64,000 nucleotides of DNA from Micromonosporaceae bacterium (lineage in GTDB: Bacteria; Actinomycetota; Actinomycetes; Mycobacteriales; Micromonosporaceae). The notes under the pieces are model-generated. The model made no database searches. It saw only the letters and a program-made list of their open reading frames with translations, and was not told the origin of the DNA. Where the stretch lies: positions 8,280-72,279 of the forward strand of contig DASTMZ010000008.1 of assembly GCA_035713725.1 (NCBI GenBank), in the 5' to 3' direction. The translations under genes and the position numbers were made by a program. Of this stretch, positions 2,509 to 64,000 are shown in pieces (within the stretch, counting starts at the first letter, position 1; the number at the start of each line of letters is the position of its first letter).

Positions 2509-2527
2509 TCCGGTAAGGCTAACCTAA
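2509..2527. promoter_or_regulatory. IdeR/DtxR-type iron box 1 upstream of efeU
   Basis: TCCGGTAAGGCTAACCTAA matches the 19 bp iron-box consensus TTAGGTTAGGCTAACCTAA at 16/19 positions. It lies 68 bp upstream of the efeU start. Confidence 0.65.
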
Positions 2528-2537
2528 GACTCACGGC

Positions 2538-15628: not shown

Positions 15629-15652
15629 TTCTGACGATCGCTGAGGTGTTCC

Positions 15653-24411: not shown

Positions 24412-24640
24412 CGCCTGTCGCCTCCTGACGACTCTTGTCGCGAGAACATGTGTCGCGAGGTGGTCGTGTCGTACCCGCATCCGTGGCGTTTCAACCACCC
24501 ACATCGCCAGTCGGTGCAAGGCGCCCAAGTTGACGCAAGTCGCCCAGGTGACTCCGTCCGGCGCGTCGCCCGCCGCACGTATTGCTACCTGCGCACATAC
24601 GAATGTGGACGGGCGGCCGATCGTTAACGAGTGCAGGGAC

Positions 24641-35623: not shown

Positions 35624-37042
35624 TCAAGCTGGCGTCTGGTGTGGGTGCGGGTCCGGTGGCTCAGTCGACGCGGTGTCCGCGGATGGCTTGGGCGTAAGTC
35701 GGATCGTTGCGACGTGCGCGACAACCACCGCGACGATGACGATGGGCATGACGGATACGCCGTCGCTGCCGAGGAACAACGTCGTCAGCAGGACCGCGGT
35801 GAACGGGAGACGCAGCATGCCGGCCGTCATTGCACCGATCCCCATCGCCGCCGCCGGCACGACCGAGAGGCCTGGCAGGTGGGACATCGCGATGCCGCCG
35901 ACCGCGCCGATGAACATGCCGGGAAACGTCGGGCCGCCGCGGAAACCGACGAGGCTGCCCGCGTACGCGAGGCCCTTGCACGCGACCAGCAACAGCAGCG
36001 CGCCGACCGAGTAGCCGGCGGCGTGTTCCATCAGCACCGGCAGCTGCGCCTGGCCGGAGAACAGTACGTCGGCGTTCGGATGGTCGGTCGCCTCGACATA
36101 GGCGATGGCGAGCCCGGCGATGGCGAGACCGATCGCGCCGGTGACGAGCACCGTCCAGCGTTCCACCACGCCGCGGATCGCGGTCGCGCCACGGCGCAGC
36201 AACCAACATGCCGCCGCCGCGAGCAAGCCGATCACGATCGCCCAGCCGAACTCCGCGACGGTCGGGCGCCCGACGTGGGGCAGATTCGGGATGGCTAGGG
36301 AGAACGTGCCCTGACCGGTCAGCGCGTCGAGGCCGGTGAAGACGAGCGCGCCGATGCCGGCGCCGAGCAGCCCGGGCACGAGCACGACCGACCCGATCGC
36401 GCCGGCGAGCCCGGACGCCTCGATGATCAGGAATGCACCGGTGAGCGGCGAGCCGAGCAACGTAGAGACCGCGGCGAAGCTACCCATCGCCGCCATGATG
36501 GCGGCGGCCTGCAGCGGCAGGTCGCGTTTCACGAGGCGTACGATCCAGACGGCCACCCCGCCGCCGAGCGCGATCAGCGGCGCCTCTGGACCGACGACCG
36601 CGCCGAGCGAGATGCTGGCCAGCGCCGCGATCGCGATGCCGGGCAGCTGCGCGCCCGGTGCCACGCCACCCACGTGCAAACCATCCACGGGTACGTGTCC
36701 GCCGGTACCGGGCAGGTAGCGTACCGTCGCGCCGACGACGAGACCGGCGACCACCATCGGGAGGATCGGCCACCACACCGGCTGCGCCGAGAAGCCGAGA
36801 CCATGCGGCAGGTTCGTGTAGACCCAACCCTGGATCGACGTCGTCAGACGCAGAAACCCGTACGCCGCCGCGGTTATGGGTACGCCGAGCACCGCCGCGA
36901 GGATCAGCAGGACGACGTACCGTCGCGAACGTAGGAACGACTCGGCGCGTGCGTTTGCGGCGGCCGATTGCGGCGGGATGGCATCGGCGGATCCGGCGCC
37001 GGATCCCTCAGACTCGTGCACGGCCGCCACAACGCAGGGCAC
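35624..37042 (-). CDS. ClC-family voltage-gated chloride channel / H+ antiporter protein
   Basis: 472 aa with at least 10 TM helices and ClC selectivity-region-like motifs (GAVVGPEAPLIALGG, GGPTFPGMFIGA). Confidence 0.8.
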   Translation of the reverse strand: MPCVVAAVHESEGSGAGSADAIPPQSAAANARAESFLRSRRYVVLLILAAVLGVPITAAAYGFLRLTTSIQGWVYTNLPHGLGFSAQPVWWPILPMVVAGLVVGATVRYLPGTGGHVPVDGLHVGGVAPGAQLPGIAIAALASISLGAVVGPEAPLIALGGGVAVWIVRLVKRDLPLQAAAIMAAMGSFAAVSTLLGSPLTGAFLIIEASGLAGAIGSVVLVPGLLGAGIGALVFTGLDALTGQGTFSLAIPNLPHVGRPTVAEFGWAIVIGLLAAAACWLLRRGATAIRGVVERWTVLVTGAIGLAIAGLAIAYVEATDHPNADVLFSGQAQLPVLMEHAAGYSVGALLLLVACKGLAYAGSLVGFRGGPTFPGMFIGAVGGIAMSHLPGLSVVPAAAMGIGAMTAGMLRLPFTAVLLTTLFLGSDGVSVMPIVIVAVVVAHVATIRLTPKPSADTASTEPPDPHPHQTPA

Positions 37043-37228
37043 ATAACGGTACGTTCACCGGCTTAGCATGTCAGATCCGGGCGAAGTGGATACGCTGACG
37101 GAGTTGTTCCGGCGGTCCCGCGGCGGTGTCGTGGGTCGTGATCGGGGGCGGGCGCGGTCGCGGTGACGGCAGTTCAGGTCCACATCGATCAGATCCAGAT
37201 CGGCGTCCTCCTGCCGGGGATGGCGCCG

Positions 37229-37759
37229 TCAGCCGCAGCGCGACGCGACCGCCTGCTGCAGCGAGTTATACGCGGCCAGGACACCGGTCGCGGCGGTCGT
37301 GATCGCACCGACGCTGTTGGAACCGGGACTGGCGCTCGCCGACGCCACCGCCGACTTCAGATTTGCCAGCGCGCTGCGCATCTGGGCGACCTGCGGGGCG
37401 AACTGTGTCTGTGCGGCCGCGGCGAACTCGTTCAGGCTGGCCTGAATGTTGTCGATGGCGGCCTGCACGCCCGGCAGCCCGGCGGACGGATCGAGCGACG
37501 TGAGGTTCTGCACCGACGCCTTGAGCTTCGCCGCCGCGTTGCACAATGCCGCGGCGGTGCCAGTGGGCTGTGGGCTGGACGGGGCGACCGACGGCGATGT
37601 GGTGGCAGGACTCGGCGACGGATTGCCGCCACCGTTGTTCGAGCAGGCGGCGATCGCCGCGCCGAGGCAGAGCAGCACGACTGGGACAGCCGCACGCCAC
37701 CGTTGGCGCGGCAAACGGCTCTGCCGTGGAGTGTGGCCGTGCGGTCGGCGGCTCTGCAT
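37229..37759 (-). CDS. Hypothetical lipoprotein
   Basis: Internal ATG (MQSRRPHG), signal peptide with lipobox AIAAC, S/P-rich linker and a helical A/Q-rich C-domain. The ORF-track 5' extension is rejected. Confidence 0.55.
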   Translation of the reverse strand: MQSRRPHGHTPRQSRLPRQRWRAAVPVVLLCLGAAIAACSNNGGGNPSPSPATTSPSVAPSSPQPTGTAAALCNAAAKLKASVQNLTSLDPSAGLPGVQAAIDNIQASLNEFAAAAQTQFAPQVAQMRSALANLKSAVASASASPGSNSVGAITTAATGVLAAYNSLQQAVASRCG

Positions 37760-37859
37760 GGGCTCTTCATACCGCCGCGGCCGGGCGCGTCGTCGCGGAT
37801 CCGGCGACATCGTTATGAGCGCCGTCCTGACGAGGCGCTGATGCGGGCGGCGGTGCGCC

Positions 37860-38708
37860 GTGACTCGTGACGACGAGCCCAACGGCGAGCCCGACAGCGA
37901 GACCGACAGGAAAGCCGGCAGCGAACCCGACGGCGAGCCCGGCAGCGAGCCCGGCAGCGGCGAGGCAGGGCGCAGACTGGGCGACGAGCCGGAACGTGGA
38001 TCGCGGGAAAGTCGACGGCGCTTCTCGGCGGCCGACGACATTCTCCGCGGCTTCAGCCGTGGCGGCCGACCGACCGGATATCGCGCCTTCTTCGCGACCA
38101 CGATCGCGGCGTCGTTGCTCATCTGGGATCTGGCATTCGCGCTCGGCGCCTATCACACGGTGTTCTACTACCGGCTGTTCCAGATCTTCGTCGTCTCGAC
38201 CGTGCTGTTGCTGGGTTCCATCGTGTTGCGGCGCGAGATGCGCGTCTGGTGGTGGACGCGCGTGGTGCTGTGCATTCCGGTGTTGTGGTTCGTACTCCGT
38301 GGCATCGCACCCATCTACCGATCCACCGGCCCGCTACACGTCATCGAACAAACGTTGACCTGGCTCACCCTGGCAACCGTGCCGTTGACGTTGTGGGCAC
38401 TCGTCCGCGTGATGGCACCCGGCCTATTCGAGATGCGCGCGCGGCGGGTCCGGGCGCTCGTGATCGTGATCATTTCAGTCGTAGCGATCGCCGGATTCGT
38501 CGTCGGCCAGTTCAACAGCCACTTCACGAACTGTCGCGACTACGTGGTCGCGGGCGACGACGAGCCGAGCCACTGCCGGCCCACACCGGGTACCCCGGCG
38601 CCCAGCCCACCGTCGCCCAGCCCACGGTCGCCCAGCCCACGGTCGCCCAGCCCTCCGTCGCCCAGCCCACCGTCGCCCAGCCCTCCGTCGCCCAGCCCCC
38701 AGCGATAA
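37860..38708 (+). CDS. Hypothetical membrane protein with repeat tracts at both termini
   Basis: 282 aa with about 5 TM helices in the core (LLIWDLAFALGAY, IFVVSTVLLLGSIVL, VVLCIPVLWFVL ...). The core is flanked by an acidic EPxG repeat and a C-terminal SPSPP repeat. Confidence 0.6.
   Translation: MTRDDEPNGEPDSETDRKAGSEPDGEPGSEPGSGEAGRRLGDEPERGSRESRRRFSAADDILRGFSRGGRPTGYRAFFATTIAASLLIWDLAFALGAYHTVFYYRLFQIFVVSTVLLLGSIVLRREMRVWWWTRVVLCIPVLWFVLRGIAPIYRSTGPLHVIEQTLTWLTLATVPLTLWALVRVMAPGLFEMRARRVRALVIVIISVVAIAGFVVGQFNSHFTNCRDYVVAGDDEPSHCRPTPGTPAPSPPSPSPRSPSPRSPSPPSPSPPSPSPPSPSPQR
37875..37958 (+). repeat. 12 bp tandem repeat x7 (EPNG EPDS ETDR KAGS EPDG EPGS EPGS)
   Basis: gagcccaacggc gagcccgacagc gagaccgacagg aaagccggcagc gaacccgacggc gagcccggcagc gagcccggcagc. 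Confidence 0.85.
38600..38704 (+). repeat. 15 bp tandem repeat x7 (SPSPP/SPSPR units) ending at the stop codon
   Basis: gcccagcccaccgtc / gcccagcccacggtc x2 / gcccagccctccgtc / gcccagcccaccgtc / gcccagccctccgtc / gcccagcccccagcg. Confidence 0.9.
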
Positions 38709-38846
38709 CTGCTACGCGGCGTCTCGGCAGCTTTGCCGGAGACACGACGCCAGAAAGGGCGATGGTGATGACTCTCCGCGTCGTCACACCTTCGGCGGCG
38801 TCCGTCAAGCGGCACGTCGGTGCGGTAGCCGCCCGATAGGGGGCTG

Positions 38847-38875
38847 ATCCGACATTTTCCAAAAAATGTTCGGAT
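38847..38875. promoter_or_regulatory. AT-rich imperfect palindrome upstream of ndh (candidate operator of the ndh-cyd operon)
   Basis: ATCCGACATTTT CCAA AAAATGTTCGGAT (one-base indel between arms), about 195 bp upstream of the ndh ATG. It is the most AT-rich spot in the region. Confidence 0.45.
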
Positions 38876-39069
38876 TCTCTGTAATGTGATCTTTGCGAAG
38901 GTCACCCTGGCTGTTCCTGGTGTCACGGTTCGCGTCGCATCGCACGAGCCGCTAGCGAGCCCGACGGCCGACCGTCGGCCTCGATGGATGACCGGGCACG
39001 GCCGGAGCGCGCCGTCGTACGCGATCTTTCAGATGTTGTGGGCTTGCAGATGTTCTGGGGGCGCTCCAC

Positions 39070-40398
39070 ATGACCGGTTCGCAACCCGTACACATCATCA
39101 TCGTCGGCGGCGGCTTCGGCGGCGTCGCCTGTGCGAAGCGCCTCGCGGGTGATCCGCAAGCGCAGGTGACGCTCTTCGACAACAACGGCTTCCACCAGTT
39201 CCAGCCACTGCTCTACCAGGTCGCGACCGCCGAGTTGACGCCGGCAGACATCGCGTTCGATCTCGAGGAGATCTTCAAGCACCACGACAACGTCACGGCG
39301 CGCATGGCGGAGGCCACCGCGATCGACCCACAGGCTCGCTCCGTGACGCTCGCCGATGGGGACACGCTCACGGCTGACTTTCTCGTCCTGGCGGCCGGCG
39401 CACAGCCGAACTTCTTCAACACCACCGGCGCCGAGGAACATGCGTTCCCGCTCTACTCGCTGCGGGATGCCAAGCGCGTCCGATCTCGCGTCCTGCAGCT
39501 GTTCGAGGATGTCGCGAAACAGCCGCGCCTCATCGACGACGGCGCGTTGAACTTCGTGATCGTCGGCGCCGGACCGACCGGCGTAGAGATTGCTGGCGCT
39601 CTTTCCGAGTTGATCCACGACGTCATGCCGCACCGGTATCCGGACATGGCGATCGACGCGGCGAGGATCATTCTCGTCGACATGGGTAACGCGCCGCTGG
39701 GCGCTTTCTCCGACGCGGCCCATGGGTACGCCACAAAGCAGCTGAAGCATCGCGGCGTGGAACTGATGCTCGGCACCGGCGTGACGGAAGTTGCCCGCGA
39801 CCACGTGACGCTTCGCGACGGTACGACGATCCCTACGCACCTCACGATCTGGGGCGGCGGCGAAAAGGCGTCACCAGTTGTCGAGGCATCCAGTGTCGAC
39901 GTTGGACATGGCGGCCGCGTCACCGTGAACGCCGACTTGACCGTCGAGGACTATCCCGGCGTGTACGCGGTCGGCGACGCGGCCAACATCCCCGGCCCGG
40001 ACGGCGAGATCCTGCCTCAGCTCGGCAGCGTGGCGCAGCAATCCGGCGACTGGGCCGGTCGCAACATCTCGGCCGAGATGGCCGGCGTCAAGCGGGAGCC
40101 GTTCGAATACCACGACAAGGGAATCATGGCGATGATCGGCCGGCGAGCGGCAGTAGCCGAGCTTGGTGAACATCGTCACGAGCTGCACGGCCGGGTCGCG
40201 TTCGCGGCGTGGCTCGGTGTGCACGCCCAATTGCTCGCGAACACCGGCGCCGAGATCCGTGCGTTCATGCAGTGGGCCGAGGACTTCTACGTGCGGCCGC
40301 ACCACCGGTCGGCAGAACTGCTGGCCGCCTCGCACATCGACACGCCTCGCATTCATTGGCACGAGGCCCGACAAACCATCGACGACCAAAAGGACTGA
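39070..40398 (+). CDS. ndh: Type II NADH:quinone oxidoreductase (NDH-2)
   Basis: Two dinucleotide-binding motifs ([22 protein letters not shown]) and [11 protein letters not shown]...PQLGSVAQQ, typical of NDH-2. Confidence 0.85.
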
Positions 40399-40399
40399 C

Positions 40400-41809
40400 A
40401 TGGCTGACCATCACGCCACCAACGCGCAACCAGCCGACGTGTTTGTCATCTTCGGCATCACCGGCGATCTAGCGAAGGTGATGACGTTCGATTCGCTGTA
40501 CCGGCTGGAGAAACGCGGTCTGTTGGACTGCCCCATCGTCGGCGTCGCCGTGCAGGACTGGACGGACAAGCATCTCCGGGACCACGCCCGCCAGTGCATC
40601 GAGGCGAACGGCGAGAAGATCGACGAGGCGGTGTTCAAGCGGTTCGCCGACCGCTTGTCGTACGTGTCGGGCGACTTTACCGACGCGGGTACCTACCACG
40701 ATGTCGCGAACAAGATGCGTGGCGCCACCATGCCCGTGTTCTACCTGGAGATCCCGCCGTCGCTCTTCGGTACGGTGGTCGGCAACCTGACGCACGCCGG
40801 CCTGACGAAGACCGGACGCGTCGTTGTGGAGAAGCCATTCGGCCACGACATGGCTTCCGCGCAGGCGCTCGCCGACGAGATCCACCAGTACATCGACGAG
40901 TCGCAGCTTTATCGGATCGACCACTTCCTCGGCAAGATGGGCAGTGAGGAGCTGCTCTACTTCCGGTTCGCGAACACGATGATCGAGCCGGTGTGGAACC
41001 GCAACTACGTCGAGTGCGTACAGATCACGATGGCCGAGAGCTTCGGCGTCGAGGACCGCGGCCACTTCTACGATCCGGTCGGCGCGCTGCGCGACGTCGT
41101 CGTCAATCACCTCATGCAACTCGTCGCGCTCGGTGGCATGGAACCGCCGGCCGGCCGCGACCCGAATACGCTCAACAACGCCAAGGATGCGCTGTGGCAG
41201 GCGGTGGTCAGCGCGGACCCGGCGAACTATGTGCGCGGCCAGTACGACGGCTACCAGAAGATCGACGGCGTCGCACCTAACTCCACCACCGAGACATCCG
41301 TGGCGCTACGACTCGACATCGACAACTGGCGCTGGTCGGGCGTGCCGTTCTTCATCCGTACCGGCAAGAAGCTGAAGGCAACGCAGACCGAGTTCCGGCT
41401 GGTGTTCAAGGAGCCGCCTCGGCTCGGCCTGCGAATGGCGGGCGAACAGCGTCCGGAGGCAAACCAGCTCGTCATCAAGCTTGACCCGAGCACTGGCATC
41501 CGCTTCGATCTCGAGGCCAAGCGCGCCGGACAGATACAGCCGGAGCCGATCGACCTCGAGATGGAGTTCGCTCAGGAGGGTGGCGAGGGACCGACGCCGT
41601 ACGAGGTGCTGCTGCACGCCGCGCTCGTCGGCAACAGCGCGCGCTTCACCCGACAGGACGGCATCGAGGACGAGTGGCGGGTCATGCAGCCCCTGCTTGA
41701 CAAGCCGCCGAAGGTACATCCGTACAAGCCCGGCACGTGGGGACCGAAGGAAGCCGACAAGATCACCGCCGAATTCGGCGGTTGGCGAGAACCGTGGGTG
41801 ACGTCATGA
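40400..41809 (+). CDS. zwf: Glucose-6-phosphate dehydrogenase
   Basis: [14 protein letters not shown] (NADP site), active-site [18 protein letters not shown]. The ATG lies 1 nt after the ndh stop. Confidence 0.92.
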
Positions 41810-43728
41810 CCACAACGCTCGATCGTCCGGGAACCGATCAGCAGCAACCGGTAGGTTCGCTCCCTACGGCCGCGGCGGTCTCGCCATATGCGCCGATTGC
41901 GGACTACGCGTTCCTGTCCGACTGCCACACCAGCGCGCTGATCGCGCCGGACGGCTCGGTCGACTGGCTCTGCGTGCCGGCGTTCGATTCGCCGAGCATC
42001 TTTGGCAGCCTCCTCGATCGCCAGGCCGGCAGCTTCCGCGTCGGGCCGTACGGCATCGTGCACCCGAGCGCACGTCGGTATGTGCCCGGCACGAACGTGA
42101 TGGAGACGACGTGGCGGACGCGGACCGGGTGGTTGATCGTTCACGACGCGATCGTCATGGGACCGATCGGTCACGACGATGTCGTCACGCCACACACCCG
42201 CCCGCCAGCCGACGCGGACGCCCGGCACATGCTGGTGCGCACCGTCGAGTGCACATCGGGACACGTCGAGGTCGAGATGGTCTGCGAACCGCTCTTCGAC
42301 TACGGCCGCGCCACCGCGGAGTGGTCGATGCAGGACGACGAGCGGCACGTCGTCGACGCGACCGGCGCCGGCGTCCGGATCCGGCTTCGGTCCGATCTCG
42401 CGCTGGGCATCGAGGCCGGCCGCGCGCGCGGTCGGCGGACCCTGACCACGGGCGACCGCATGTACTGCGTGTTGTCCTGGAACCACGATCTCGCCACCCC
42501 GGAGACGTTCGATGAGGCGAGAGCGATGATCAACGAGACGTCCGACTTCTGGCGCACCTGGCTGGAGAACTCACGCATGCCGGACCACCGGTGGCGTGAA
42601 CACTTGCAGCGCTCGGCGCTGGCCATCAAGGGACTGTCCTACATGCCGACCGGCGCAACGCTCGCGGCGTCGACGACGTCCCTTCCCGAGACGCCGGGCG
42701 GCGAGCGCAACTGGGATTACCGGTTCACCTGGATGCGAGACTCGACATTCACACTCCGCGCGCTGCATTACCTCCTGCTCGACTGGGAGGCGGACGAGTT
42801 CATGCAATTCGTCGCAGATGTCGAACCGACGGAGGATGGCTCGCTGCAGATCATGTACGGCATCGACGGTCGCCGCGACCTGACCGAGGAGACGCGCGAC
42901 GAGCTGTCCGGATACGAGGGCGCACATCCGGTCCGGGTCGGCAACGGAGCGTGGAACCAGAAGCAGAACGACGTATTCGGCGCCGTTCTCGATTCGATCC
43001 TGCTGCATGTCAAGCACAGCAACCGGCTGCCGCGGCGGCTGTGGCCGATCGTGGAATCGCAGGCGGCGTGCGCGACTCGCGTATGGAAGGAACCCGACCA
43101 GGGCATCTGGGAGGCGCGTGGCGCACCGAAACACTACGTGTCGTCGAAGCTGATGTGTTGGGTCGCCATGGATCGCGCGGCCAAGCTCGCCGCGGTCGCT
43201 GGTGAGGACGCGAAGGGTACGGCCTGGCGCCAGACGGCAGACGAAATCAAGGCGGACATCCTCGCGCGCGGTGTCAGTGACCGTGGCGTGCTACGCCAGC
43301 ACTATGACACCGACGCGCTGGACGCGTCCACGTTGCTCGCCGTCATGTTCGGCCTCCTTCCGCAGGACGATGAGCGGTTGCGTAAGACGGTGGACGCGAT
43401 CTCCGACGAGTTGACCGAGAACGGGTTCGTGCTGCGCTACGACACGAGCGAGACCGACGATGGCATGAGCGGCAAGGAAGGCACGTTCCTCATCTGCTCA
43501 TTCTGGCTCGTGTCGGCACTAGCCATGGTGGGCGAGATGGCTCGAGCTCGCGATCTCATGGAGAAGCTGCTCCGCGTGGCGTCGCCGCTCGGCCTCTACG
43601 CCGAGGAGTTCGAGCCCGATACCGGTCGCCATCTCGGCAACTTCCCGCAGGCGTTCTCGCATCTCGCGTTGATCGACGCGGCGAGCCGCATCATCGTCGC
43701 CGAAATACTTCCGGAGCAGATGTCATGA
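41806..43728 (+). CDS. Glycoside hydrolase family 15 protein (glucoamylase/trehalase type)
   Basis: [42 protein letters not shown]-domain and (alpha/alpha)6 region with [16 protein letters not shown] overlap with zwf. Confidence 0.85.
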
Positions 43729-45332
43729 CCAACGGAGATATCCCATCCGCGTTCGACGTCATCATCATCGGTACCGGCGCCGGCGGCGGTACGCTCGCTC
43801 GCCATTTGGCGCCGTCCGGCAAGCGGATCCTGTTGCTGGAACGCGGTGGCTATCTACCGCGGGAACCGGAGAACTGGGACACCGGCGATGTGTTCGTCGA
43901 CGGCCGCTACATCTCGAAGGACAGCTGGACAGACCACAAGGGCAAGGCGTTCCAGCCGCAGGTGCACTACTTCGTGGGCGGCGCTACGAAGATGTACGGC
44001 GCCGCGCTGTACCGGTTGCGGGAGCGCGACTTCGGCGAGCTTCGGCACCACGACGGGATCTCGCCGGCGTGGCCGATCTCGTACTTCGACATGGAGCCTT
44101 ACTACTCGGCGGCCGAACAGATGTACGCGGTGCACGGCGTACACGGCGAAGACCCGACCGAGGGCCCGTCCGGCACTCCGTATCCGTTCGGGCCGGTATC
44201 GCATGAGCCGCGCATCCAGCAGTTGTCCGACGACCTCGCGGCGGCCGGCTATCACCCGTTCCACGCGCCGTGTGGCGTGCGGCTCAACGAGGCGAACATG
44301 CCGTATAGCATCTGTGTGAAATGCAATTCGTGCGACGGCTTCCCATGTCCGCTGCACGCCAAGTCGGACGCCGAGGTGATGGGTGTCCGGCCGGCACTCA
44401 AGTTCGACAACGTCACGCTCCTGACCGATGCGATGGCGGTCCGGCTGGAGACGAACGGACCGGGCAACGAGGTCACGAAGGTCATCGTTGACCACGACGG
44501 CCATCAGGAGTCGTATGCCGCGAACATCGTCGTGGTCGCGTGCGGCGCGGCCAACACGGCGAAGCTGCTGCTGAGCTCGGCCACCGACAAGCACCCCAAC
44601 GGCCTCGCGAACGGCTCGGACCAGGTCGGGCGCAACTTCATGTTCCACGACAGCCAGGCCATCCTGGCCTTGTCCAAGGAACCAAACCCGACGATCTTCC
44701 AGAAGACGCTCGGGGTCAATGACTTCTACTTCGAGGGACCGGACTTCCCGTACCCGATGGGCAACATCCAGATGATCGGCAAGTCGCAGCCAGAGCACTA
44801 CCGTGGCGAGAAGTCGATCGCGAAGCTGGCACCGATGTTCTCGTTGGAGGACATCGCGAAGCATGCCGTTGACTTCTGGCTGTCCACGGAGGATCTGCCG
44901 AGGCCGGACAACCGGGTCACGCTCGACAGTGACGACAACATCCGGCTCGCCTACGAACCGAGCAACCCGACCGCCGCCGACCGCCTCTACAAGCAGTTCA
45001 AGTCGATGCTCGGCGGTCTCGGTATGCATGAAGACCATGCCGTCCACCGTTTCGCATACATGAAGACCACCATCCCGATCGCCGGGTGCGCGCACCAGGC
45101 CGGCACCGCACGGATGGGCATCGACCCGGCGACATCGGTGGTTAACGCGGACTGCCAAGCGCACGAGGTCGACAACCTGTACGTGGTCGACACGAGCGTG
45201 TTCCCGGCCATCGGCGCGGTCAACCCGGCGCTGACCGCGATGGCGAATGCAATTCGGGTCGGTGACCATCTGCTCGGTCGGATGGGCGCCACCGTCACCG
45301 CCGGCACGCGGCCGACCGCGTCATCCGGCTAA
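43725..45332 (+). CDS. GMC-family FAD-dependent oxidoreductase
   Basis: N-terminal FDVIIIGTGAGGGTLA FAD motif and C-terminal GMC signature region (AGCAHQAGTARMG...NLYVVDTSVFP). ATGA overlap with the GH15 gene. Confidence 0.8.
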   Translation: MTNGDIPSAFDVIIIGTGAGGGTLARHLAPSGKRILLLERGGYLPREPENWDTGDVFVDGRYISKDSWTDHKGKAFQPQVHYFVGGATKMYGAALYRLRERDFGELRHHDGISPAWPISYFDMEPYYSAAEQMYAVHGVHGEDPTEGPSGTPYPFGPVSHEPRIQQLSDDLAAAGYHPFHAPCGVRLNEANMPYSICVKCNSCDGFPCPLHAKSDAEVMGVRPALKFDNVTLLTDAMAVRLETNGPGNEVTKVIVDHDGHQESYAANIVVVACGAANTAKLLLSSATDKHPNGLANGSDQVGRNFMFHDSQAILALSKEPNPTIFQKTLGVNDFYFEGPDFPYPMGNIQMIGKSQPEHYRGEKSIAKLAPMFSLEDIAKHAVDFWLSTEDLPRPDNRVTLDSDDNIRLAYEPSNPTAADRLYKQFKSMLGGLGMHEDHAVHRFAYMKTTIPIAGCAHQAGTARMGIDPATSVVNADCQAHEVDNLYVVDTSVFPAIGAVNPALTAMANAIRVGDHLLGRMGATVTAGTRPTASSG

Positions 45333-45341
45333 GGCGCCAAC

Positions 45342-46898
45342 ATGAACTCTGCCTGGATGATCCTCGCATCCGGGCCGGTGCAGTTGACGCCGGCTCGGTC
45401 GCAGATGGGCTTCACTCTCGGGTTCCACATCCTGCTGGTACCGCTCGGTGTGGCGCTGCCGACGCTGATGCTGATCGCGAACTACAAGGGTCTGAAGCGC
45501 GGTGACGCGGCGGCGTTGAGTCTCGCGCGTCGATGGTCGCACGCGGCGGGTCTGACGTTCGCGGTCGGAGCGGTAACCGGGACCGTGTTGTCGTTCGAGT
45601 TTGGCTTGCTGTGGCCGGGTTTCGTCAAAACGTTCGGCGACGTCTTCGGCCTGCCATTCGCGATCGAAGGCATCTCGTTCTTTCTCGAGGCGCTGCTCGT
45701 GGCGATCTACATCTACGGCTGGCGGCGCATGAAGCCGTGGACACACTTCTGGTTCGGCTTCCCGATCCCGTTTGTGGCCATCATCGGTGCGCTTTCCATT
45801 ATCTCGGTCAACTCGTGGATGAACGCACCGGCCGGCTTCACCATCGGCTCGGATGGGCGCCCGACAAAGGTCGATCCGTTTAACGTCATCTTCAACAAGG
45901 CGTTGCCGTGGGAGCTGACGCATTTCCTCATCGCCGCGTATATGGCGGCCACGTTCATGGTCGCGTCCGTGTACGTGGTCGGTTGGCTGCGCGGGCGCCG
46001 CGACCGGTACCACCGGCTCGGCATCCTGATCCCGTTCACGATCGGTGCCATCCTCGCGCCGATCCAGGCCCTGGTCGGCGATCAGATCGCACGTTGGGTC
46101 TATCAGAACCAGCCGGCCAAGTTCGCGGCGATGGAGATAGTGACGAATTCCGGTACGCATCAACCCGAATACCTGTTCGGCATTTACCACCCGTCAACGA
46201 ACACCGTGACCGGCGGGATCAAGATTCCGGGCCTCGACTCGTGGTTAGCCGGCGGGAGCACAAGCACGTTTGTCCAAGGCATGAACTCGATCCCGCCGCA
46301 GAATCGCGCATCGAACCCGACGCTCGTACATTTCGCGTTCGACGTCATGGTCGGGATCGGCACACTGCTCCCGTTGGTGGCGCTCTACTACGCGATCGCG
46401 TATTGGCGCCGACGCAACGTGCCGCACGGACGGATATTCCTCTGGGTCGCCGCGGCCTGCGGCGTGCTGGCCTACATCGCGATCGAGGCGGGGTGGATCA
46501 CCACCGAGGTCGGCCGGCAGCCGTGGATCGTCTGGAACATCGCGCGAACATCCGGCGCGGTGACCACTGCGCAAAGCGTCACCGTGACGATGATCGTCAT
46601 CTACGTCCTCTACGCGTTGCTCGGCATCGCCACGATCGCCGTACTGCGCGCGATGGCCACGCGATGGCGCATCAAACCGGTTATCGACGACGACGAGACG
46701 TCGCCCTACGGTCCACGGCCGGACGCGGTGGCGGCGATGGCGGGCGAGACGGCGGAGGCCGGGGCATTGGCCGAGTCCGGCGTCGATGGCGCGGCAGGCC
46801 GTCGGTCCACATCCGCGACCGAAACCGCGACCGATACCGCGACCGATACCGGGGCGGACAGCGCGACCGAATCCCGCGACCGGAGACCGAAGTCGTGA
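45342..46898 (+). CDS. cydA: Cytochrome bd ubiquinol/menaquinol oxidase subunit I, with a C-terminal hydrophilic extension
   Basis: CydA pattern (RSQMGFTLGFHILLVPLGVALP, GWITTEVGRQPWIV). About 70 extra C-terminal residues contain the AT(E/D)T repeat. Confidence 0.9.
   Translation: MNSAWMILASGPVQLTPARSQMGFTLGFHILLVPLGVALPTLMLIANYKGLKRGDAAALSLARRWSHAAGLTFAVGAVTGTVLSFEFGLLWPGFVKTFGDVFGLPFAIEGISFFLEALLVAIYIYGWRRMKPWTHFWFGFPIPFVAIIGALSIISVNSWMNAPAGFTIGSDGRPTKVDPFNVIFNKALPWELTHFLIAAYMAATFMVASVYVVGWLRGRRDRYHRLGILIPFTIGAILAPIQALVGDQIARWVYQNQPAKFAAMEIVTNSGTHQPEYLFGIYHPSTNTVTGGIKIPGLDSWLAGGSTSTFVQGMNSIPPQNRASNPTLVHFAFDVMVGIGTLLPLVALYYAIAYWRRRNVPHGRIFLWVAAACGVLAYIAIEAGWITTEVGRQPWIVWNIARTSGAVTTAQSVTVTMIVIYVLYALLGIATIAVLRAMATRWRIKPVIDDDETSPYGPRPDAVAAMAGETAEAGALAESGVDGAAGRRSTSATETATDTATDTGADSATESRDRRPKS
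46815..46874 (+). repeat. 12 bp tandem repeat x5 in the cydA 3' tail (ATET ATDT ATDT GADS ATES)
   Basis: gcgaccgaaacc gcgaccgatacc gcgaccgatacc ggggcggacagc gcgaccgaatcc. Confidence 0.85.
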
Positions 46899-48187
46899 CG
46901 GCCGCAAACCTCGTCGCCGGAGTCATTGTCATCGGCATCACGCTCTATGCCTGGTCCGGCATCGCGGACTTCGGCGCGGGTTTCTGGGATCTGATCGCCG
47001 GCAACAAGGCGCAAGGTCTCCGCGCTCGGTCGCTGATCGACGAGGTCATTACGCCGGTGTGGGAGGCCAACCACGTCTGGCTCATCTACATCCTGGTCGT
47101 GACGTGGACGGCGTTCGGCGGCGCGTTCGGATCGATCATGACCGCGCTTTTCGTCCCGCTGGCGCTCGCCGCGCTCGGAATCGTGTTGCGCGGTGCGAAC
47201 TTCGCGCTGCGCAAGGACGCTGCGCGGTCCGGCGCGCGGCAGTGGTCCGGCTGGCTGTTCGGCATCGGCGCGGTTATGACGCCGTTCTTTCTTGGCACGG
47301 CGGTCGGCGCAATCATGTCGGGCCGCGTACCACCGAACGGCGTCGGCAATCCCGTGAACGCGTGGGTGAACGCGGTGTCCATCACGACCGGACTGCTGAC
47401 CGTGGCGGTCGGTGCGTTTACTTCCGCCTGCTACCTCGTCGTCGAATGCGCTCGCCGGGGGGTTCCGGAGCTGCGCGAGTATTTCCGCATTCGCGCGTTG
47501 ATCGCGGGCGTCGTGGCGCTGCTGTGCGGCGTCGGCGTGGCGATCGCGCTGCGCGTCCAAGAGCGATCCATGTTCAACCGGCTCACCAGCCGCAGCATCC
47601 CGCTGATCGTGCTCGGCGTGGTCGCGCTCATCGCCGCGTTCGTGATGGCCCGTCGAGGTGTGGCACGTGGCCTGCGGGTGGTTGCCGCGGTGGGCGTCGG
47701 AGCGCTCGTTTGGGCATGGGCGGTCGCGCAATATCCGTATCTGCTGCCGTTCCGGCTGACCATCTCGGATGGCGCCGGCTCGACGACATCGATGAAGTGG
47801 CTGTTGGCTTGGTTCGTCGTGGCGCTCGTCACGGTGGTCCCGATGTTGATCGTGCTGTACACCCTGGACCAGCGTGGCCACCTCGGCGAGGATCCGAGAA
47901 CGTCGCGCCTCGAACCCGCGGGTGCTGGTCAAGTGCCGGCCGGTGAAGTGGCGGCGGCATCGGGGATGGCCGCGGAGTCCGGGCGGAAGGATCAGCGCGT
48001 CGACGAGCAGGCCGACCAGCGCTCCGACCAGCAACGCCCTACGCAACAGTCCGAGCCGCAATCGGGGCAGCAATCCGAACAGCAATCCGGGCAGCAGTCC
48101 GGGCAGCGCACCGATCGGGCCGGCGAGAAGCCGACCGGACCTCGCCACCGGGCGATCCGACCGCCGCGCCGCCGAAAGGACACCTGA
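46895..48187 (+). CDS. cydB: Cytochrome bd oxidase subunit II, with a C-terminal extension of about 90 aa rich in Gln/Ser/Glu
   Basis: CydB-like N-terminus (ITLYAWSGIADFGAGFWDL..., WEANHVWLIY) and 8-9 TM helices. GTG at 46895 overlaps the cydA stop (GTGA). Confidence 0.85.
   Translation: MTAANLVAGVIVIGITLYAWSGIADFGAGFWDLIAGNKAQGLRARSLIDEVITPVWEANHVWLIYILVVTWTAFGGAFGSIMTALFVPLALAALGIVLRGANFALRKDAARSGARQWSGWLFGIGAVMTPFFLGTAVGAIMSGRVPPNGVGNPVNAWVNAVSITTGLLTVAVGAFTSACYLVVECARRGVPELREYFRIRALIAGVVALLCGVGVAIALRVQERSMFNRLTSRSIPLIVLGVVALIAAFVMARRGVARGLRVVAAVGVGALVWAWAVAQYPYLLPFRLTISDGAGSTTSMKWLLAWFVVALVTVVPMLIVLYTLDQRGHLGEDPRTSRLEPAGAGQVPAGEVAAASGMAAESGRKDQRVDEQADQRSDQQRPTQQSEPQSGQQSEQQSGQQSGQRTDRAGEKPTGPRHRAIRPPRRRKDT
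48047..48106 (+). repeat. 12 bp tandem repeat x5 in the cydB 3' tail (QSGQ QSEQ QSGQ QSGQ)
   Basis: caatcggggcag caatccgaacag caatccgggcag cagtccgggcag, preceded by cagtccgagccg. Confidence 0.85.
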
Positions 48188-48240
48188 TCGAGCCGCACCT
48201 TATCGGGCCGCACCTGATCTGGGCGCACCTGGTCTGGCAC
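48181..48240. repeat. 15 bp tandem repeat x4 starting on the cydB stop codon
   Basis: cacctgatcgagccg caccttatcgggccg cacctgatctgggcg cacctggtctggcac. The stop TGA at 48185-48187 lies inside unit 1, and unit 3 also contains TGA. Confidence 0.9.
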
Positions 48241-48278
48241 TGCCCCGCCGGTCCACGGTCGCGCGTCCGGGGTGACGT

Positions 48279-48947
48279 ATGGTCATCGGCGTGAACGAGT
48301 CGGCCGCTCCGATGCGACCACGCAACCTCGCGGTCACTCATCTGGTCGGCGCCGCCATACCCGGTGTGGTCATCGCCGTCGTCGTCGCCTTCTTCGTACC
48401 GATCGATGTGGCGCTGCTGATCGGCTGGGACGTTGCGGCGGCCGTCTTTCTGGCCGGGACGTGGCTGACCGTGCACGGCCTTGACGGGCCGGCGACCAAG
48501 GTGCACGCGGTTCGCGACGACCCGACCAGGACCGCTTCCGATCTGACCGTGCTGCTCGCGAGCGCCGCGAGTCTCGCGGCGGTGGCGACACTCATCATCC
48601 GGGCCAGCAACGCGCACGGCGCGGGCCGCGTATGGGAGGCGGCGCTCGGTGTCGGCAGCGTCGTGATGGCCTGGCTCGTCGTGCACGCGACCTACATGCT
48701 GCGGTACGCCACGATCTACCACACCGGCGGCGAAGGCGGCGTCGACTTCAACCAGACGAGTCCGCCGCGCTACACCGACTTCGCCTATCTGGCGTTCACG
48801 ATCGGCATGACGTTCCAGGTGTCCGACACGACGCTCACGTCGTCCGAGATGCGCGCAAACGCGCTGCGCCACGCATTGCTGTCCTATCTCTACGGCACGG
48901 TCATCATCGCCGCGACGATCAACCTGATCGCCGGTCTCAATCGCTGA
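48279..48947 (+). CDS. DUF1345-family membrane protein
   Basis: 222 aa. The C-terminal FNQTSPPRYTDFAYLAFTIGMTFQVSDT...LLSYLYGTVIIAATINL is characteristic of DUF1345. Confidence 0.75.
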   Translation: MVIGVNESAAPMRPRNLAVTHLVGAAIPGVVIAVVVAFFVPIDVALLIGWDVAAAVFLAGTWLTVHGLDGPATKVHAVRDDPTRTASDLTVLLASAASLAAVATLIIRASNAHGAGRVWEAALGVGSVVMAWLVVHATYMLRYATIYHTGGEGGVDFNQTSPPRYTDFAYLAFTIGMTFQVSDTTLTSSEMRANALRHALLSYLYGTVIIAATINLIAGLNR

Positions 48948-48956
48948 GGTGCACCG

Positions 48957-49913
48957 ATGACGGAAGGCTCGAGTGGATCGGTTGGCGTGCCGCATGGCGT
49001 GGGTCATGGCGGGGGTCACGGCGTGTACGTACCCGATCTGATCGCCGCCCAGCGCACGATCGGCACTCGCACATTCGACTTCGATCGGCAGGTCGCCGTG
49101 ATGGCGATCGTCAACCGGACGCCGGACTCTTTCCACGACCGCGGCGCATCGTACGCGCTGGATCATGCCGTGTACGCGGTCGGTGCGGCGGTCTCCGACG
49201 GCGCCGATTGGGTGGACATCGGCGGGGTACCGTTCGGGCTCCACGCCGGCGAGGTCAGCGAATCGGAGGAGATCGATCGCGTCGTACCGGTCGTGACCGC
49301 GGCTCGTCAGGCGTCCGATGTCGTGCTGTCGGTGGACACGTACCGCCCGGAGGTCGCGCGTCGGGTGATCTCGGCCGGTGCAGACGTCATCAATGACACG
49401 TCCGGACTTTACGATCCGGGGCTCGCGGACATCGTCGCCGAATCGGGTACGACGCTGGTCATCACGCACAGCTTGGCGCGCCCACCGCGTACCCCCGTAG
49501 TGCGGCCCACCTACCGCGACGTGGTCGCGGAGGTCGCGGCGTTCCTCGCGGACCGCGTGAGCGTGGCGCTCGACCACGGCGTGCGTCCGGAGCAGATCGT
49601 CATCGACCCCGGCCACGACCTGAACAAGAACACCCACCACTCGCTGGAGCTCACGCGCCGGTTGGCCGACATCACATCGCTCGGCTACCCGACGCTAGTG
49701 GCGTTGTCGAACAAGGACTTCATCGGCGAGGCACTCGGCCGACCGCAACACGAGCGCCTCGTCGGCACGATTGCCTCGAACGTCGCCGCGATGTTGCAGG
49801 GTGCCAGGATCGTTCGCGTTCATGACGTTCGAGCCGCGGTCGACTCGGTGCACATGGTGGCGGCGATCCTTGGCTGGCAAGAGCCGGTGGAGGTCCGCCA
49901 CAACGTCGATTAG
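48957..49913 (+). CDS. folP: Dihydropteroate synthase-family protein
   Basis: Pterin-binding domain pattern (VMAIVNRTPDSFHDRG, DWVDIGG, SVDTYRPEVARRVISAGADVINDTSG, IDPGHDLNKN, RVHDV). Whether it is the housekeeping or a folP2-type paralog cannot be told from sequence alone. Confidence 0.8.
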   Translation: MTEGSSGSVGVPHGVGHGGGHGVYVPDLIAAQRTIGTRTFDFDRQVAVMAIVNRTPDSFHDRGASYALDHAVYAVGAAVSDGADWVDIGGVPFGLHAGEVSESEEIDRVVPVVTAARQASDVVLSVDTYRPEVARRVISAGADVINDTSGLYDPGLADIVAESGTTLVITHSLARPPRTPVVRPTYRDVVAEVAAFLADRVSVALDHGVRPEQIVIDPGHDLNKNTHHSLELTRRLADITSLGYPTLVALSNKDFIGEALGRPQHERLVGTIASNVAAMLQGARIVRVHDVRAAVDSVHMVAAILGWQEPVEVRHNVD

Positions 49914-62677: not shown

Positions 62678-63931
62678 CTATCTGCGGGGATGGTACGGAT
62701 TCCGTCGCGGTCGCTGCGCCGGGTCGACGTGCGGAGGCGGTACGAATTCGGGGTGTTTGTCCGGTGCCAGCCGCACGGCCCAGCCGCCGTGGTGGACGAT
62801 GCGGTGATGGTAGTTGCAGAGCGCTACGCCGTTGTCGCGGTCGGTGCTGCCGCCGTCGACCCAGTGCTGGATGTGGTGGATCGTGGTCCAGCGCTGTGGT
62901 CGATCGCAGCCTGGGAACGCGCAGCCGTGATCGCGCAGCAGCACCGCCTGCCGGATGGCGCCGGTGAACAATCGGCGAGTCCGGCCGAGATTGATCGGCA
63001 CGCCGGCTCCACCCAGCACCGCCGGGAGGATCTGCGCGTCGCAGGCGAGTCGGCGTACGGCATCGGGCGACAACATCGCACCGGTATCCAGCTGACCGAC
63101 AGCGACGTCGCGACGCAGCGCCTCCCAATCCACGGTGACGGTGATCTGCGGCGGTGTGCCGCCGTTCTGCGGTAGGCCACCGCTCGCGAGTGTCATTCGG
63201 CACACCTCGACGAGTGCGTCAGCGCGGCGGGCCGCCGGCAAGCGCAAATCGGGCCCATCCTCGCCCCGCAGCGGCTTCGCGAGCGGGTCGATGGCGGCGG
63301 TCACGATCGCCGCGCCCTCGGCATCGAGAACGCCCGACAGCCGGATCCCGCCCAGTCCGTCGGCCGACAGTGTGAAGCCGCGGCGTTCCCACGCGTGGCG
63401 CTCCTCGCGCTCGAGGCGTTCGCGCAACCGCCGGTCGGCGAGATCGGGATCGATGTGCGCGATGATGCGCTCACTAAGCCGCTGCAACAACGTTGGTTCG
63501 AACTGCGAGGCGCACTCAACGAGCTGCGCCTCGACCTTGTCCACCAACGCCGGGTCGTCGGCCGGGATCGCGGCGAGCACCCGTCCGGCGGCCGCGGCCT
63601 GTCCGGCGTTGACCGTCCCCGACGCCATCGCGTCGGCGAGCACCGGCCGCGCGTCAAGCACCTCGCCGAGCGTGACGAGCTGGCGTGCGTCGCGCGCCGC
63701 GATGCGCAGCACGTCCCGCAACCATGCCACGGTCGACGTCGCCGCTTGACTGCGTGGCAGATCGCGACCGCGCGCCTCGTGAACCAGAGTGGCGAGCACG
63801 CCGGTCGCACGGGAGACCAACCCGGCGAGGTCGACCGTGGCGGCCACGAGCTCCTCGTCGGAGAACGCAAAGCCGGGCCGAGCCGCGAACGCGTCGACGC
63901 CGTCGACCGCCCGTGCCAGCTCGTCGTCCAT
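62678..63931 (-). CDS. DUF222 / HNH endonuclease-domain protein (mycobacterial 13E12-repeat-like family)
   Basis: The N-terminal DUF222-like helical region and a C-terminal HNH motif (CAFPGCDRPQRWTTIHHIQHWVDGGSTDRDNGVALCNYHHRIVHHGGW). The ORF-track ATG lies at the very window edge (64000); the internal ATG at 63931 (MDDELARAV) is preferred. Confidence 0.85.
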   Translation of the reverse strand: MDDELARAVDGVDAFAARPGFAFSDEELVAATVDLAGLVSRATGVLATLVHEARGRDLPRSQAATSTVAWLRDVLRIAARDARQLVTLGEVLDARPVLADAMASGTVNAGQAAAAGRVLAAIPADDPALVDKVEAQLVECASQFEPTLLQRLSERIIAHIDPDLADRRLRERLEREERHAWERRGFTLSADGLGGIRLSGVLDAEGAAIVTAAIDPLAKPLRGEDGPDLRLPAARRADALVEVCRMTLASGGLPQNGGTPPQITVTVDWEALRRDVAVGQLDTGAMLSPDAVRRLACDAQILPAVLGGAGVPINLGRTRRLFTGAIRQAVLLRDHGCAFPGCDRPQRWTTIHHIQHWVDGGSTDRDNGVALCNYHHRIVHHGGWAVRLAPDKHPEFVPPPHVDPAQRPRRNPYHPRR

Positions 63932-64000
63932 GCATCGATTCTCGTACACGTGTACGACGATTTCGCGCCGCCGATCGGACAGCGGTCCACTGTGGCACAT

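Follow-up and report, generated by a model that had tools for sequence, protein, structure and literature searches.

We analysed a 64,000-nt stretch of contig DASTMZ010000008.1 (assembly GCA_035713725.1) from a bacterium of the family Micromonosporaceae, hereafter the window. Six plus-strand open reading frames (ORFs) at positions 39070-48187 encode, in order, a type II NADH:quinone oxidoreductase (NDH-2, gene ndh), a glucose-6-phosphate dehydrogenase (Zwf), a trehalase-like hydrolase of glycoside hydrolase family 15 (GH15), a flavin adenine dinucleotide (FAD) dehydrogenase of the GMC family, and the two subunits of a cytochrome bd oxidase (CydA and CydB). The same gene families recur together across related loci far beyond chance. 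We give slightly better than an even chance to the whole chain, in which one operon would encode a cytoplasm-facing route from storage sugar to oxygen without a proton-pumping enzyme. Each of the six families is already known and each gene alone is ordinary. What appear to be undescribed are the conserved module, a subfamily of apparently cytoplasmic Fe-S GMC proteins without gamma and beta subunits, and the genetic coupling of GMC to bd oxidases; a search of the full-text literature found no published description of the gene cluster.

In the proposed route, GH15 would hydrolyse an intracellular alpha-glucoside, most likely trehalose and possibly the ends of an alpha-glucan, to glucose. The GMC enzyme would oxidise free glucose at C1, passing electrons from FAD through its Fe-S cluster to menaquinone, and the gluconolactone formed would proceed to gluconate and then to 6-phosphogluconate. 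In a second branch, Zwf would oxidise phosphorylated glucose with NAD+, probably making NADH, which NDH-2 would reoxidise to yield menaquinol. The two carbon branches would meet at 6-phosphogluconate, while the menaquinol of both would be oxidised by a cytochrome bd of the qOR-2 subfamily, which would reduce oxygen.

Structure of the probable operon and cofactor-determining residues

Reading frames and junctions were taken directly from the window sequence, and families were assigned with Pfam and NCBIfam. The six-ORF layout, its coordinates (Table 1) and its five junctions came out exactly as the initial annotation had given them: ndh and zwf are separated by 1 nt (TGAcATG), both zwf/GH15 and GH15/GMC share an ATGA overlap, GMC and cydA are joined by TAA, 9 nt and ATG, and cydA and cydB share a GTGA overlap. 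The chosen start codons are backed by the Pfam matches, which begin 6-30 residues downstream of them in all six proteins. Across 38500-48500, a consensus scan found no sigma-70-like promoters (1.3 expected in shuffles), and the five terminator-like hairpins seen are no excess over shuffles (4.0 +/- 2.0). The promoter consensus fits actinobacterial promoters poorly, and internal promoters may have escaped it. Rfam gave no match at the gathering threshold across the whole window, that is, no known riboswitch or leader. With stop and start codons overlapping or nearly abutting at all five junctions and no promoters or terminators above the shuffled background, the six genes very probably form one operon with a single transcript, as had been proposed. 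The cluster is slightly lower in GC than its flanks (0.64-0.66 vs 0.68-0.71) in a window of about 68% GC, and the operon region at 38001-46000 lies 3-5 percentage points lower.

All six family assignments were confirmed by Pfam and NCBIfam. Zwf matches G6PD_N and G6PD_C, scores 459 bits against the zwf model TIGR00871 (cut-off 400.6), contains both active-site motifs (RIDHxLGK and EKPFG) and aligns with the Mycobacterium avium enzyme 4LGV at 5.5e-149. Its Val51 stands at the position of the arginine that binds the 2'-phosphate (R50 in Escherichia coli, R72 in human, Arg in cyanobacteria), and GVAV[DQ][DH]W is found in 15 of 15 group-1 Zwf loci. This beta2-alpha2 arginine binds the 2'-phosphate of NADP+; it is missing from those glucose-6-phosphate dehydrogenases that are the most NAD-specific, and isoenzymes have been classed as NADH-yielding where it is absent (PMC8546961); M. 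avium 4LGV itself groups with NAD-preferring proteobacterial enzymes (PMC4807051). Because the NADP-binding arginine is lost, the window Zwf probably prefers NAD+ and yields NADH.

The ndh product matches Pyr_redox_2 (6.8e-49), and its closest solved structures are NDH-2 enzymes (9mqy, 3.3e-57; Bacillus subtilis YjlD, 3.9e-50; C. thermarum 4nwz, 5e-38). It has two GxGxxG motifs, GGGFGG and GAGPTG. In NDH-2 enzymes, an acidic residue closing the second Rossmann strand goes with NADH and not NADPH. Here the strand ends in ILVD, and Asp or Glu (LVD or LVE) is found in nearly all cluster-linked homologues; the window enzyme is predicted to be of the NADH type. Because Zwf has lost its arginine and NDH-2 has kept its acidic residue, the 1-nt ndh/zwf junction would join a probable NADH producer to an NADH:quinone reductase.

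CydA matches Cyt_bd_oxida_I at 1.2e-124 and CydB matches Cyt_bd_oxida_II at 2.9e-54 over residues 6-323. CydA carries H29, the His of WELTHF, the Met of FDVMVG and the Glu of TEVGRQPW, which we take to be the haem ligands from knowledge of E. coli CydA. Its best solved relative is AppC of Mycobacterium smegmatis bd-II (9r2g, 1.2e-111), compared with 5doq (qOR-3, 3.4e-74) and 7d5i/7nkz (qOR-1, including mycobacterial bd-I, about 1e-37 to 1e-38). It has the signature methionine of qOR-2, M22 (M26 in M. smegmatis), where qOR-1 oxidases have Phe near haem b595, and its E109, F113 and E116 correspond to M. smegmatis E113, F117 and E120 with the extra residue absent, the signature being that defined in PMC12994193. 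On this similarity and these residues, the window oxidase is assigned to the qOR-2 class. M. smegmatis bd-II, the first characterised qOR-2 member and the subject of a 2026 structural paper, is an active menaquinol oxidase that is upregulated more than bd-I when oxygen is lowered; its functional role 'remains poorly understood', and qOR-2 oxidases have been proposed as oxygen scavengers (PMC12994193).

Both window subunits end in low-complexity tails, T/A/D-rich over about 75 residues in CydA (46660-46898) and Q/S/E-rich with GQQS repeats over about 100 residues in CydB (47900-48187). The tails are encoded by DNA tandem repeats (those of CydB at 48043-48107) and are absent from the Phytohabitans homologues, which are 467 and 335 aa long.

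Conservation of the gene set

Loci were fetched around GMC orthologues and the six window proteins were mapped onto them, giving 28 non-redundant loci (identifiers beginning with L below) in which GMC is at least 65% identical. Within about 10 kb of GMC, zwf is present in 21 of the 28, ndh and GH15 in 20 each, and cydA in 18. Because the same families lie this close to GMC in most of the loci, their grouping is far beyond chance. These counts do not bear out the description of the arrangement as unusual in the initial annotation, if that is taken to mean rare: the gene set is widespread in Micromonosporaceae, Gaiellaceae and many uncultured Actinomycetota.

The uninterrupted six-gene order is found only in the window and in the 99%-related L006, the same locus at 93-99% protein identity in the metagenome-assembled genome (MAG) 'Micromonosporaceae bacterium SMAG_U9363'. 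Elsewhere the genes are rearranged. About a dozen MAGs of Gaiellaceae and uncultured Actinomycetes have ndh-zwf-GH15-GMC, then 1-4 kb, then cydAB, and Rhizocola hellebori (L042) has overlapping genes in the order ndh-zwf-GH15-GMC-MFS-cydAB-Na/H exchanger, which is the window order with one gene of the major facilitator superfamily (MFS) added. In Phytohabitans rumicis, cydBA is divergent from zwf-GH15-ndh-GMC. L005 (GMC 86% identical), the closest metagenomic relative once L006 and the JGI cluster P0001 (100% identical) are set aside, reads ndh-GMC-cydAB-cyclase-zwf-GH15, and L008 and L014 contain overlapping cydA-cydB-GMC. The GH15 stop also overlaps the GMC start in a Limnocylindrales MAG. 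A second group of loci keeps the same functions with divergent paralogues as partners (zwf 43%, GH15 38-53% and ndh 32% identical).

The oxidases of L021 (a Gaiellaceae-type locus) and L014 are qOR-1 (7d5i at 1.6e-118 and 1e-105), and CydA of Rhizocola, 31% identical to that of the window, is placed with the qOR-1 oxidases as well. Judged by these matches, two bd subfamilies have been recruited to one gene module. Compared with their Gaiellaceae counterparts, the window zwf, GH15 and GMC show 69-74% identity, as against about 44% for ndh and about 30% for cydA, which makes the zwf-GH15-GMC trio the conserved and possibly mobile core. Hints of horizontal mobility of the core are the lower GC of the operon, the identity of the trio and the presence of GMC homologues on plasmids.

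A contrary account holds that ndh, zwf-GH15-GMC and cydAB are independent units fused in one lineage and share no function, their short gaps reflecting nothing more than compact actinobacterial genomes. The confinement of the exact uninterrupted order to the window and L006 would fit such a fusion, 4-nt overlaps are common in high-GC operons, and lone GMC orthologues occur in Nonomuraea (L002) and Micromonospora (L043). The gene counts over the 28 loci, however, largely refute it. A bd oxidase accompanies GMC in 18 of them and NDH-2 in 20, the loci with co-occurring genes span different orders, strands and paralogues, and by our own estimate chance would place a gene of one or two copies per genome this close in less than 1% of loci. 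We consider independent units very improbable.

The ORFs scanned with Pfam, which span all but a few stretches of the window, include neither cydDC nor a second zwf, the genes that the initial annotation had proposed looking for elsewhere in the genome. Nor was there a trehalose or glycogen synthesis gene, a glucokinase or a gluconokinase among these ORFs.

The GMC flavoprotein and the proposed route to oxygen

The GMC protein matches GMC_oxred_N (5.2e-11) and GMC_oxred_C (3.8e-21). Its closest solved structures are the alpha subunit of the FAD-dependent glucose dehydrogenase (FAD-GDH) of Burkholderia cepacia (6a2u, 1.3e-39) and the large subunit of Gluconobacter fructose dehydrogenase (7w2j, 2.3e-32), and HMMER aligns it over its full length with 6a2u_B (residues 10-516). 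In the B. cepacia enzyme, Cys212, Cys218 and Cys222 hold a 3Fe-4S cluster, the gamma subunit is bonded through Cys213, FAD is covalently linked to His105, and His476 and Asn519 form the catalytic pair (PMC6719666). C197, C203 and C208 of the window protein align with the three cluster ligands and H457/N500 with the catalytic pair. The motif here is C197-x2-C200-x2-C203-x4-C208 (CxxCxxCxxxxC), C200 being an additional fourth cysteine. C197, C200, C208, H457 and N500 are invariant in 121 of 121 close homologues, and C203 is kept in 120 of the 121. The position of the gamma-bonding Cys213 is Val in the window and Val or Ile in the family.

No gene for a gamma (hitch-hiker, Tat-signal) subunit is present in or near the operon, whose intergenic gaps of at most 9 nt leave no room for one, a location elsewhere in the genome being possible. 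A multi-haem cytochrome c subunit was found neither in the operon, nor among the Pfam-scanned window ORFs, nor in the related loci. Neither GMC nor GH15 has a signal peptide, and the GMC enzyme is probably cytoplasmic. From its alignment and gene context, we place it as a distant relative of the Fe-S catalytic subunit of respiratory sugar dehydrogenases, standing outside the heterotrimeric complexes. Small ORFs upstream of GMC in other loci were considered as gamma-like subunits and rejected: that in L001 is an unrelated 92-aa membrane peptide, that in L023 an N-terminal fragment of CydA, and that in L003 the C-terminus of GH15.

GH15 matches TREH_N (6.5e-16) and Glyco_hydro_15 (9.5e-70). Among NCBIfam models, two for archaeal trehalases score highest, TreH1 with 373 bits (cut-off 820) and TreH2 with 320 bits (cut-off 1000), and the oligosaccharide amylase model scores 42 bits. 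The enzyme is best described as trehalase-like, with trehalose as its putative substrate. Few GH15 trehalases have been characterised (PMC10969515).

An exact-sequence look-up of the GMC protein returned no record, and its relatives form at least 8000 clusters at 90% identity. Identity is 72% or higher throughout the best 120 clusters, whose sources are Micromonosporaceae, Nonomuraea, Frankia, Acidimicrobiales and a Limnocylindrales MAG. Homologues with 49-57% identity are carried on 134 annotated plasmid records from Rhizobiales, Burkholderiales, Azospirillum, Nostoc, Priestia, Streptomyces and Halobaculum. The neighbours of these more distant genes are informative. In Streptomyces canus, GH15-cyclase is followed by gluconokinase-GMC, the gluconokinase lying directly upstream of GMC, with cydB-cydA-NDH-2-like-SDR on the opposite strand (SDR, short-chain dehydrogenase/reductase) and genes for a CLC channel, a Na+/H+ exchanger and a DUF389 protein nearby. 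In Paraburkholderia, Nostoc and Mesorhizobium, SDR-GMC is accompanied by genes for DoxX, cupin, SMP-30/gluconolactonase and VOC proteins and by GH15 or a glucoamylase, and Azospirillum has aquaporin-GMC-VOC-FAD oxidoreductase (with an NDH-2-like domain)-amylo-1,6-glucosidase-glucosidase. Aldose 1-epimerase (mutarotase) and sugar MFS transporters lie near GMC in the Gaiellaceae loci and Rhizocola. Alpha-glucan hydrolases (GH15, glucoamylase, amylo-1,6-glucosidase or glucosidase) thus neighbour GMC homologues in several phyla. A PF04199 'cyclase', a metal-dependent hydrolase that may act as a lactone hydrolase, is fused to GMC in one cluster representative (P0115, 785 aa) and lies beside the cluster in L005 (14400-15329), L014 (6445-7389) and L037 (6151-7095).

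Because lactonase, gluconokinase and mutarotase neighbours fit the C1 oxidation of a free aldose, and because GH15 would free glucose, conversion of glucose to gluconolactone is the most economical reading of the GMC enzyme. The sugar-to-oxygen chain put forward in the initial annotation is strengthened in that the six families travel together in shuffled orders with divergent paralogues, and in that lactonase, gluconokinase, epimerase and glucan-hydrolase genes are neighbours elsewhere; the flow of substrate and electrons through the chain is what we infer from them.

Several points weigh against this chain, which for the six proteins and their close homologues is read from sequence. GH15 falls below the cut-offs of both trehalase models, and no solved structure matched it by sequence. 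In GMC, the covalent-FAD His105 is Met90 in the window and Leu, Met or Phe in the family, and the two asparagines that contact the sugar in B. cepacia GDH give way to Cys/Val (Asn474) and Ala (Asn475); because of these replacements, active-site conservation does not secure the substrate. C203, the counterpart of Cys218, is not kept in homologues of 50-57% identity from other phyla, in which C197, C200 and C208 are invariant, and because of this variation the exact Fe-S ligand set and cluster type are uncertain. An AlphaFold2 model of GMC (27-sequence alignment, 72-86% identity) was discarded as too poor for use, its pLDDT averaging 49.5 and lying below 50 in both the substrate domain and the Cys loop. 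No membrane or quinone-binding partner of GMC was identified in the window, the DoxX gene of the proteobacterial and cyanobacterial clusters is absent here, and the operon itself contains no glucokinase, lactonase or gluconokinase. The second Zwf group reads GVAKSGW, with Lys at the discriminating position, and may use NADP.

The active-site replacements bear on whether GMC acts on something other than C1 of free glucose. Glucoside 3-dehydrogenases oxidise C3, and gluconate 2-dehydrogenase oxidises gluconate. If GMC oxidised C3 of trehalose or another glucoside, or if its substrate were gluconate, 6-phosphogluconate or another aldose or polyol, the quinone-bd chain would hold while the chemistry of GMC and the role of GH15 would differ. 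The Fe-S flavoprotein dehydrogenase family includes fructose, sorbitol, gluconate and glucoside enzymes, and the loss of Asn474 and Asn475 would be in keeping with such a change, as would the SDR, VOC and cupin genes that accompany GMC in Proteobacteria and Cyanobacteria and a ThuA-domain gene about 9 kb from the Priestia homologue. We nevertheless find another substrate rather improbable: lactonase and gluconokinase neighbours imply aldonolactone and gluconate products, aldose 1-epimerase neighbours imply a free reducing sugar and anomer specificity, and GH15 enzymes release glucose.

The wider neighbourhood raises a different question, namely whether the genes are held together by regulation. 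CLC genes flank the cluster or GMC in L005, L006, L007, L009, L014, L036, L037, L042 and L043, and ion or water channels and membrane proteins recur as neighbours more generally (CLC, Na+/H+ exchangers, bestrophin, FUSC, aquaporin, DUF1345, DUF2254, DUF389, YrhK and CrcB). The cluster could accordingly be a stress or oxygen-scavenging island whose genes are co-regulated under low oxygen, under osmotic, ionic or acid stress, or when cells dry out and are rewetted, with no flow of substrate or electrons required between the sugar enzymes and the oxidase; Zwf would then supply reductant for defence, and bd and NDH-2 would serve as an oxygen sink or redox valve. A pyridoxal phosphate-dependent decarboxylase adjoining the Gaiellaceae cluster and the scavenger role proposed for qOR-2 oxidases are consistent with such an island. 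Co-regulation accounts less well for the tight translational coupling of GH15 to GMC and of GMC to cydAB, which recurs across lineages and bd subfamilies, and for the neighbouring lactonase, gluconokinase and epimerase genes, which are more readily understood as parts of a metabolic sequence. On balance we judge a stress island lacking such flow unlikely, and the two readings are compatible with each other. As to when the electron chain would operate, a role in maintenance, hypoxia or dormancy, as the initial annotation envisaged, is possible by analogy with M. smegmatis bd-II, and the recurrent neighbours point with at least equal force to ionic or osmotic stress or to desiccation.

A bolder extension of the electron chain, which we offer as speculation and think quite unlikely, is that GMC and cytochrome bd form a dedicated glucose:oxygen oxidoreductase, through docking or a private menaquinone pool. 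With GH15, the NADH-forming Zwf and NDH-2, they would belong to a mobile module that burns stored trehalose or glycogen and that centres on GH15-GMC in other phyla, its purpose being to energise dormant or stressed soil bacteria, to scavenge oxygen, or to dispose quickly of compatible solutes after rewetting. If true, this would reveal the physiological electron donors of qOR-2 bd oxidases.

The operon provides a concrete and testable physiological context for these oxidases. It also draws attention to a large family of Fe-S GMC proteins, uncharacterised and apparently cytoplasmic, in Proteobacteria, Cyanobacteria, Bacillota, Actinomycetota and haloarchaea. Among characterised enzymes, this family is closest to the direct-electron-transfer glucose and fructose dehydrogenases of biosensors. 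If the proposed chain is correct, it would be a low-yield route from storage carbohydrate to oxygen with high oxygen affinity, relevant to persistence, to respiration of trace oxygen and possibly to the burst of CO2 after rewetting, in carriers that are abundant uncultured soil Actinomycetota (Gaiellaceae and Micromonosporaceae). Cultured carriers (Rhizocola hellebori, GCA_016862955.1; Catellatospora sp. TT07R-123, GCA_018327705.1; and Phytohabitans rumicis) make experiments feasible.

Flanking features and comparison with known systems

The features of the operon and its surroundings are collected in Table 1. The palindrome and the direct repeat upstream of ndh are kept in L006 despite indels in the flanking and intervening sequence, and were not found in more distant loci. 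The 15-nt repeat occupies most of the 91-nt gap between cydB and the DUF1345 gene and could be a protein-binding array or promoter element. A PF07077 gene is present in the extended Rhizocola hellebori cluster too. In the window, it is followed after 9 nt by a pterin-binding (dihydropteroate synthase-like) gene at 48957-49913, an odd pairing.

Table 1. Features of the operon and its flanks, in window coordinates
Feature	Position	Strand	Description
ndh	39070-40398	+	Type II NADH:quinone oxidoreductase (NDH-2), 442 aa
zwf	40400-41809	+	Glucose-6-phosphate dehydrogenase, Zwf1 (M. avium 4LGV) type, 469 aa, predicted NAD+-preferring
GH15	41806-43728	+	Trehalase-like glycoside hydrolase, 640 aa, without signal peptide
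GMC	43725-45332	+	FAD dehydrogenase with Cys-rich Fe-S loop, 535 aa; predicted cytoplasmic aldose (glucose) 1-dehydrogenase
cydA/appC	45342-46898	+	Cytochrome bd subunit I, qOR-2 subfamily, short Q-loop, ~75-aa low-complexity C-terminal tail
cydB/appB	46895-48187	+	Cytochrome bd subunit II, 430 aa, ~100-aa Q/S/E-rich C-terminal tail
AT-rich near-perfect palindrome ATCCGACATTTTCC/AAAAAATGTTCGGAT	38847-38875	.	Candidate operator or promoter region, ~200 nt 5' of ndh
17-nt direct repeat x2 (CTTGCAGATGTTCTGGG)	39026-39059	.	Found by TRF; immediately before ndh start codon
15-nt tandem repeat, ~3.9 copies (CACCTGATCTGGCCG)	48181-48238	.	Starts in last cydB bases, spans TGA stop
DUF1345 membrane protein	48279-48947	+	PF07077 9.5e-55; 91-nt gap after cydB; may be loosely associated with the operon
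CLC chloride channel/antiporter	35624-37042	-	Voltage_CLC 2.4e-22; recurrent cluster neighbour
Mycothiol-S-transferase gene	34323

Upstream of the operon, orfY (37860-38708) encodes a protein with 4-5 transmembrane segments, a PSPS-repeat tail and no Pfam match. A homologue with 48% identity adjoins GMC in a Limnocylindrales (Chloroflexota) MAG (L003/L004, 1880-2548), and orfY might be a membrane partner. The upstream orfX (37163-37870) was rejected as a gene: it is Arg-rich, has the wrong phase of GC at third codon positions and looks non-coding. No regulator was identified next to the operon, and alternative ORFs in the orfX region have no Pfam match. A palindrome, TCATCC-N5-GGATGA, was considered as a shared operator and discarded, being confined to Gaiellaceae-type loci and absent from the window. 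In L011-L013, L018, L021, L022 and L024 it lies about 170-210 nt upstream of ndh, where part of it covers the first codon of a divergent YrhK-like gene, with further copies after MFS transporter genes (L021 at 9770, L022 at 12780, L013 at 12780 and 15811); in these loci it could be an operator specific to the cluster or an RNA hairpin. A SigF/SigB-like GTTT-N14-18-GGGTA element is absent from eight upstream regions of six loci (window, L001, L005, L006, L037 and L041/L042).

Farther from the operon, a 1768-aa ORF (23960-29266) combines DUF4011, superfamily-1 helicase domains (AAA_11 and AAA_12) and a C-terminal MTES_1575 restriction-endonuclease-like domain. A gene with DUF222 and an HNH endonuclease domain, of a family commonly multicopy in actinobacteria, runs past the window end (62678-64000, minus strand). 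An imelysin/cupredoxin protein adjoins an FTR1 iron permease (218-2537, minus strand) in what has the appearance of an EfeUO-like iron uptake pair. The window also encodes a CrcB fluoride channel (12976-13800) and a Lon protease (15635-18025).

Among characterised systems, the window GMC is most like the gamma-alpha-beta FAD-GDH of B. cepacia (6a2u) and Gluconobacter fructose dehydrogenase (7w2j), with which it shares the GMC-fold FAD subunit, the site of the Cys-rich loop and the His/Asn pair. In those enzymes electrons from sugar enter the respiratory chain, as proposed here. The window protein differs in being distant (E 1e-39), in an operon without genes for a Tat-signal gamma subunit or a tri-haem cytochrome c, in the exchange of the gamma-bonding Cys for Val and of the covalent-FAD His for Met or Leu, and in its motif, CxxCxxCxxxxC as opposed to CCxxxxCxxxC in the complexes. 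It is, moreover, predicted to be cytoplasmic, and its gene is coupled to those of cytochrome bd, NDH-2, Zwf and GH15.

The window CydA shares with M. smegmatis bd-II (AppCB, 9r2g) the qOR-2 methionine, the Glu-x3-Phe-x2-Glu spacing without the extra residue and the short Q-loop. M. smegmatis appCB adjoins cydAB, whereas the window pair ends an operon of sugar-oxidising enzymes, and both window subunits have long low-complexity C-terminal tails, unlike M. smegmatis bd-II. NAD+-preferring glucose-6-phosphate dehydrogenases (Pseudomonas putida ZwfB; those of K. hansenii, B. cepacia and P. fluorescens; M. avium 4LGV) have lost the beta2-alpha2 arginine, as has the window Zwf. The cofactor preference of the window clade is a predicted one, and its operon partners are NDH-2 and GH15, not gntZ or pgl/eda. 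The GH15 trehalases of M. smegmatis, M. tuberculosis (Rv2402), Thermoplasma and Sulfolobus (TreH) resemble the window enzyme in combining TREH_N with GH15 and in having no signal peptide; the window enzyme differs from them in scoring under the equivalog cut-offs. The literature consulted reports no characterised GH15 trehalase in an operon with zwf, GMC or bd genes.

The overall logic has precedents in the periplasmic Gcd/Gad systems of Pseudomonas and Gluconobacter and in the spore-specific glcU-gdh of B. subtilis, in which glucose becomes gluconate ahead of any phosphorylation and the reducing power feeds respiration, or metabolism as cells leave dormancy. The proposed route follows the same logic with a different enzyme family, theirs being PQQ-dependent (pyrroloquinoline quinone) or SDR enzymes, and Gcd/Gad act at a Gram-negative periplasmic site. 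Neither precedent is known to be genetically coupled to a terminal oxidase, unlike the window operon, in which the sugar-oxidising genes run directly into cydAB.

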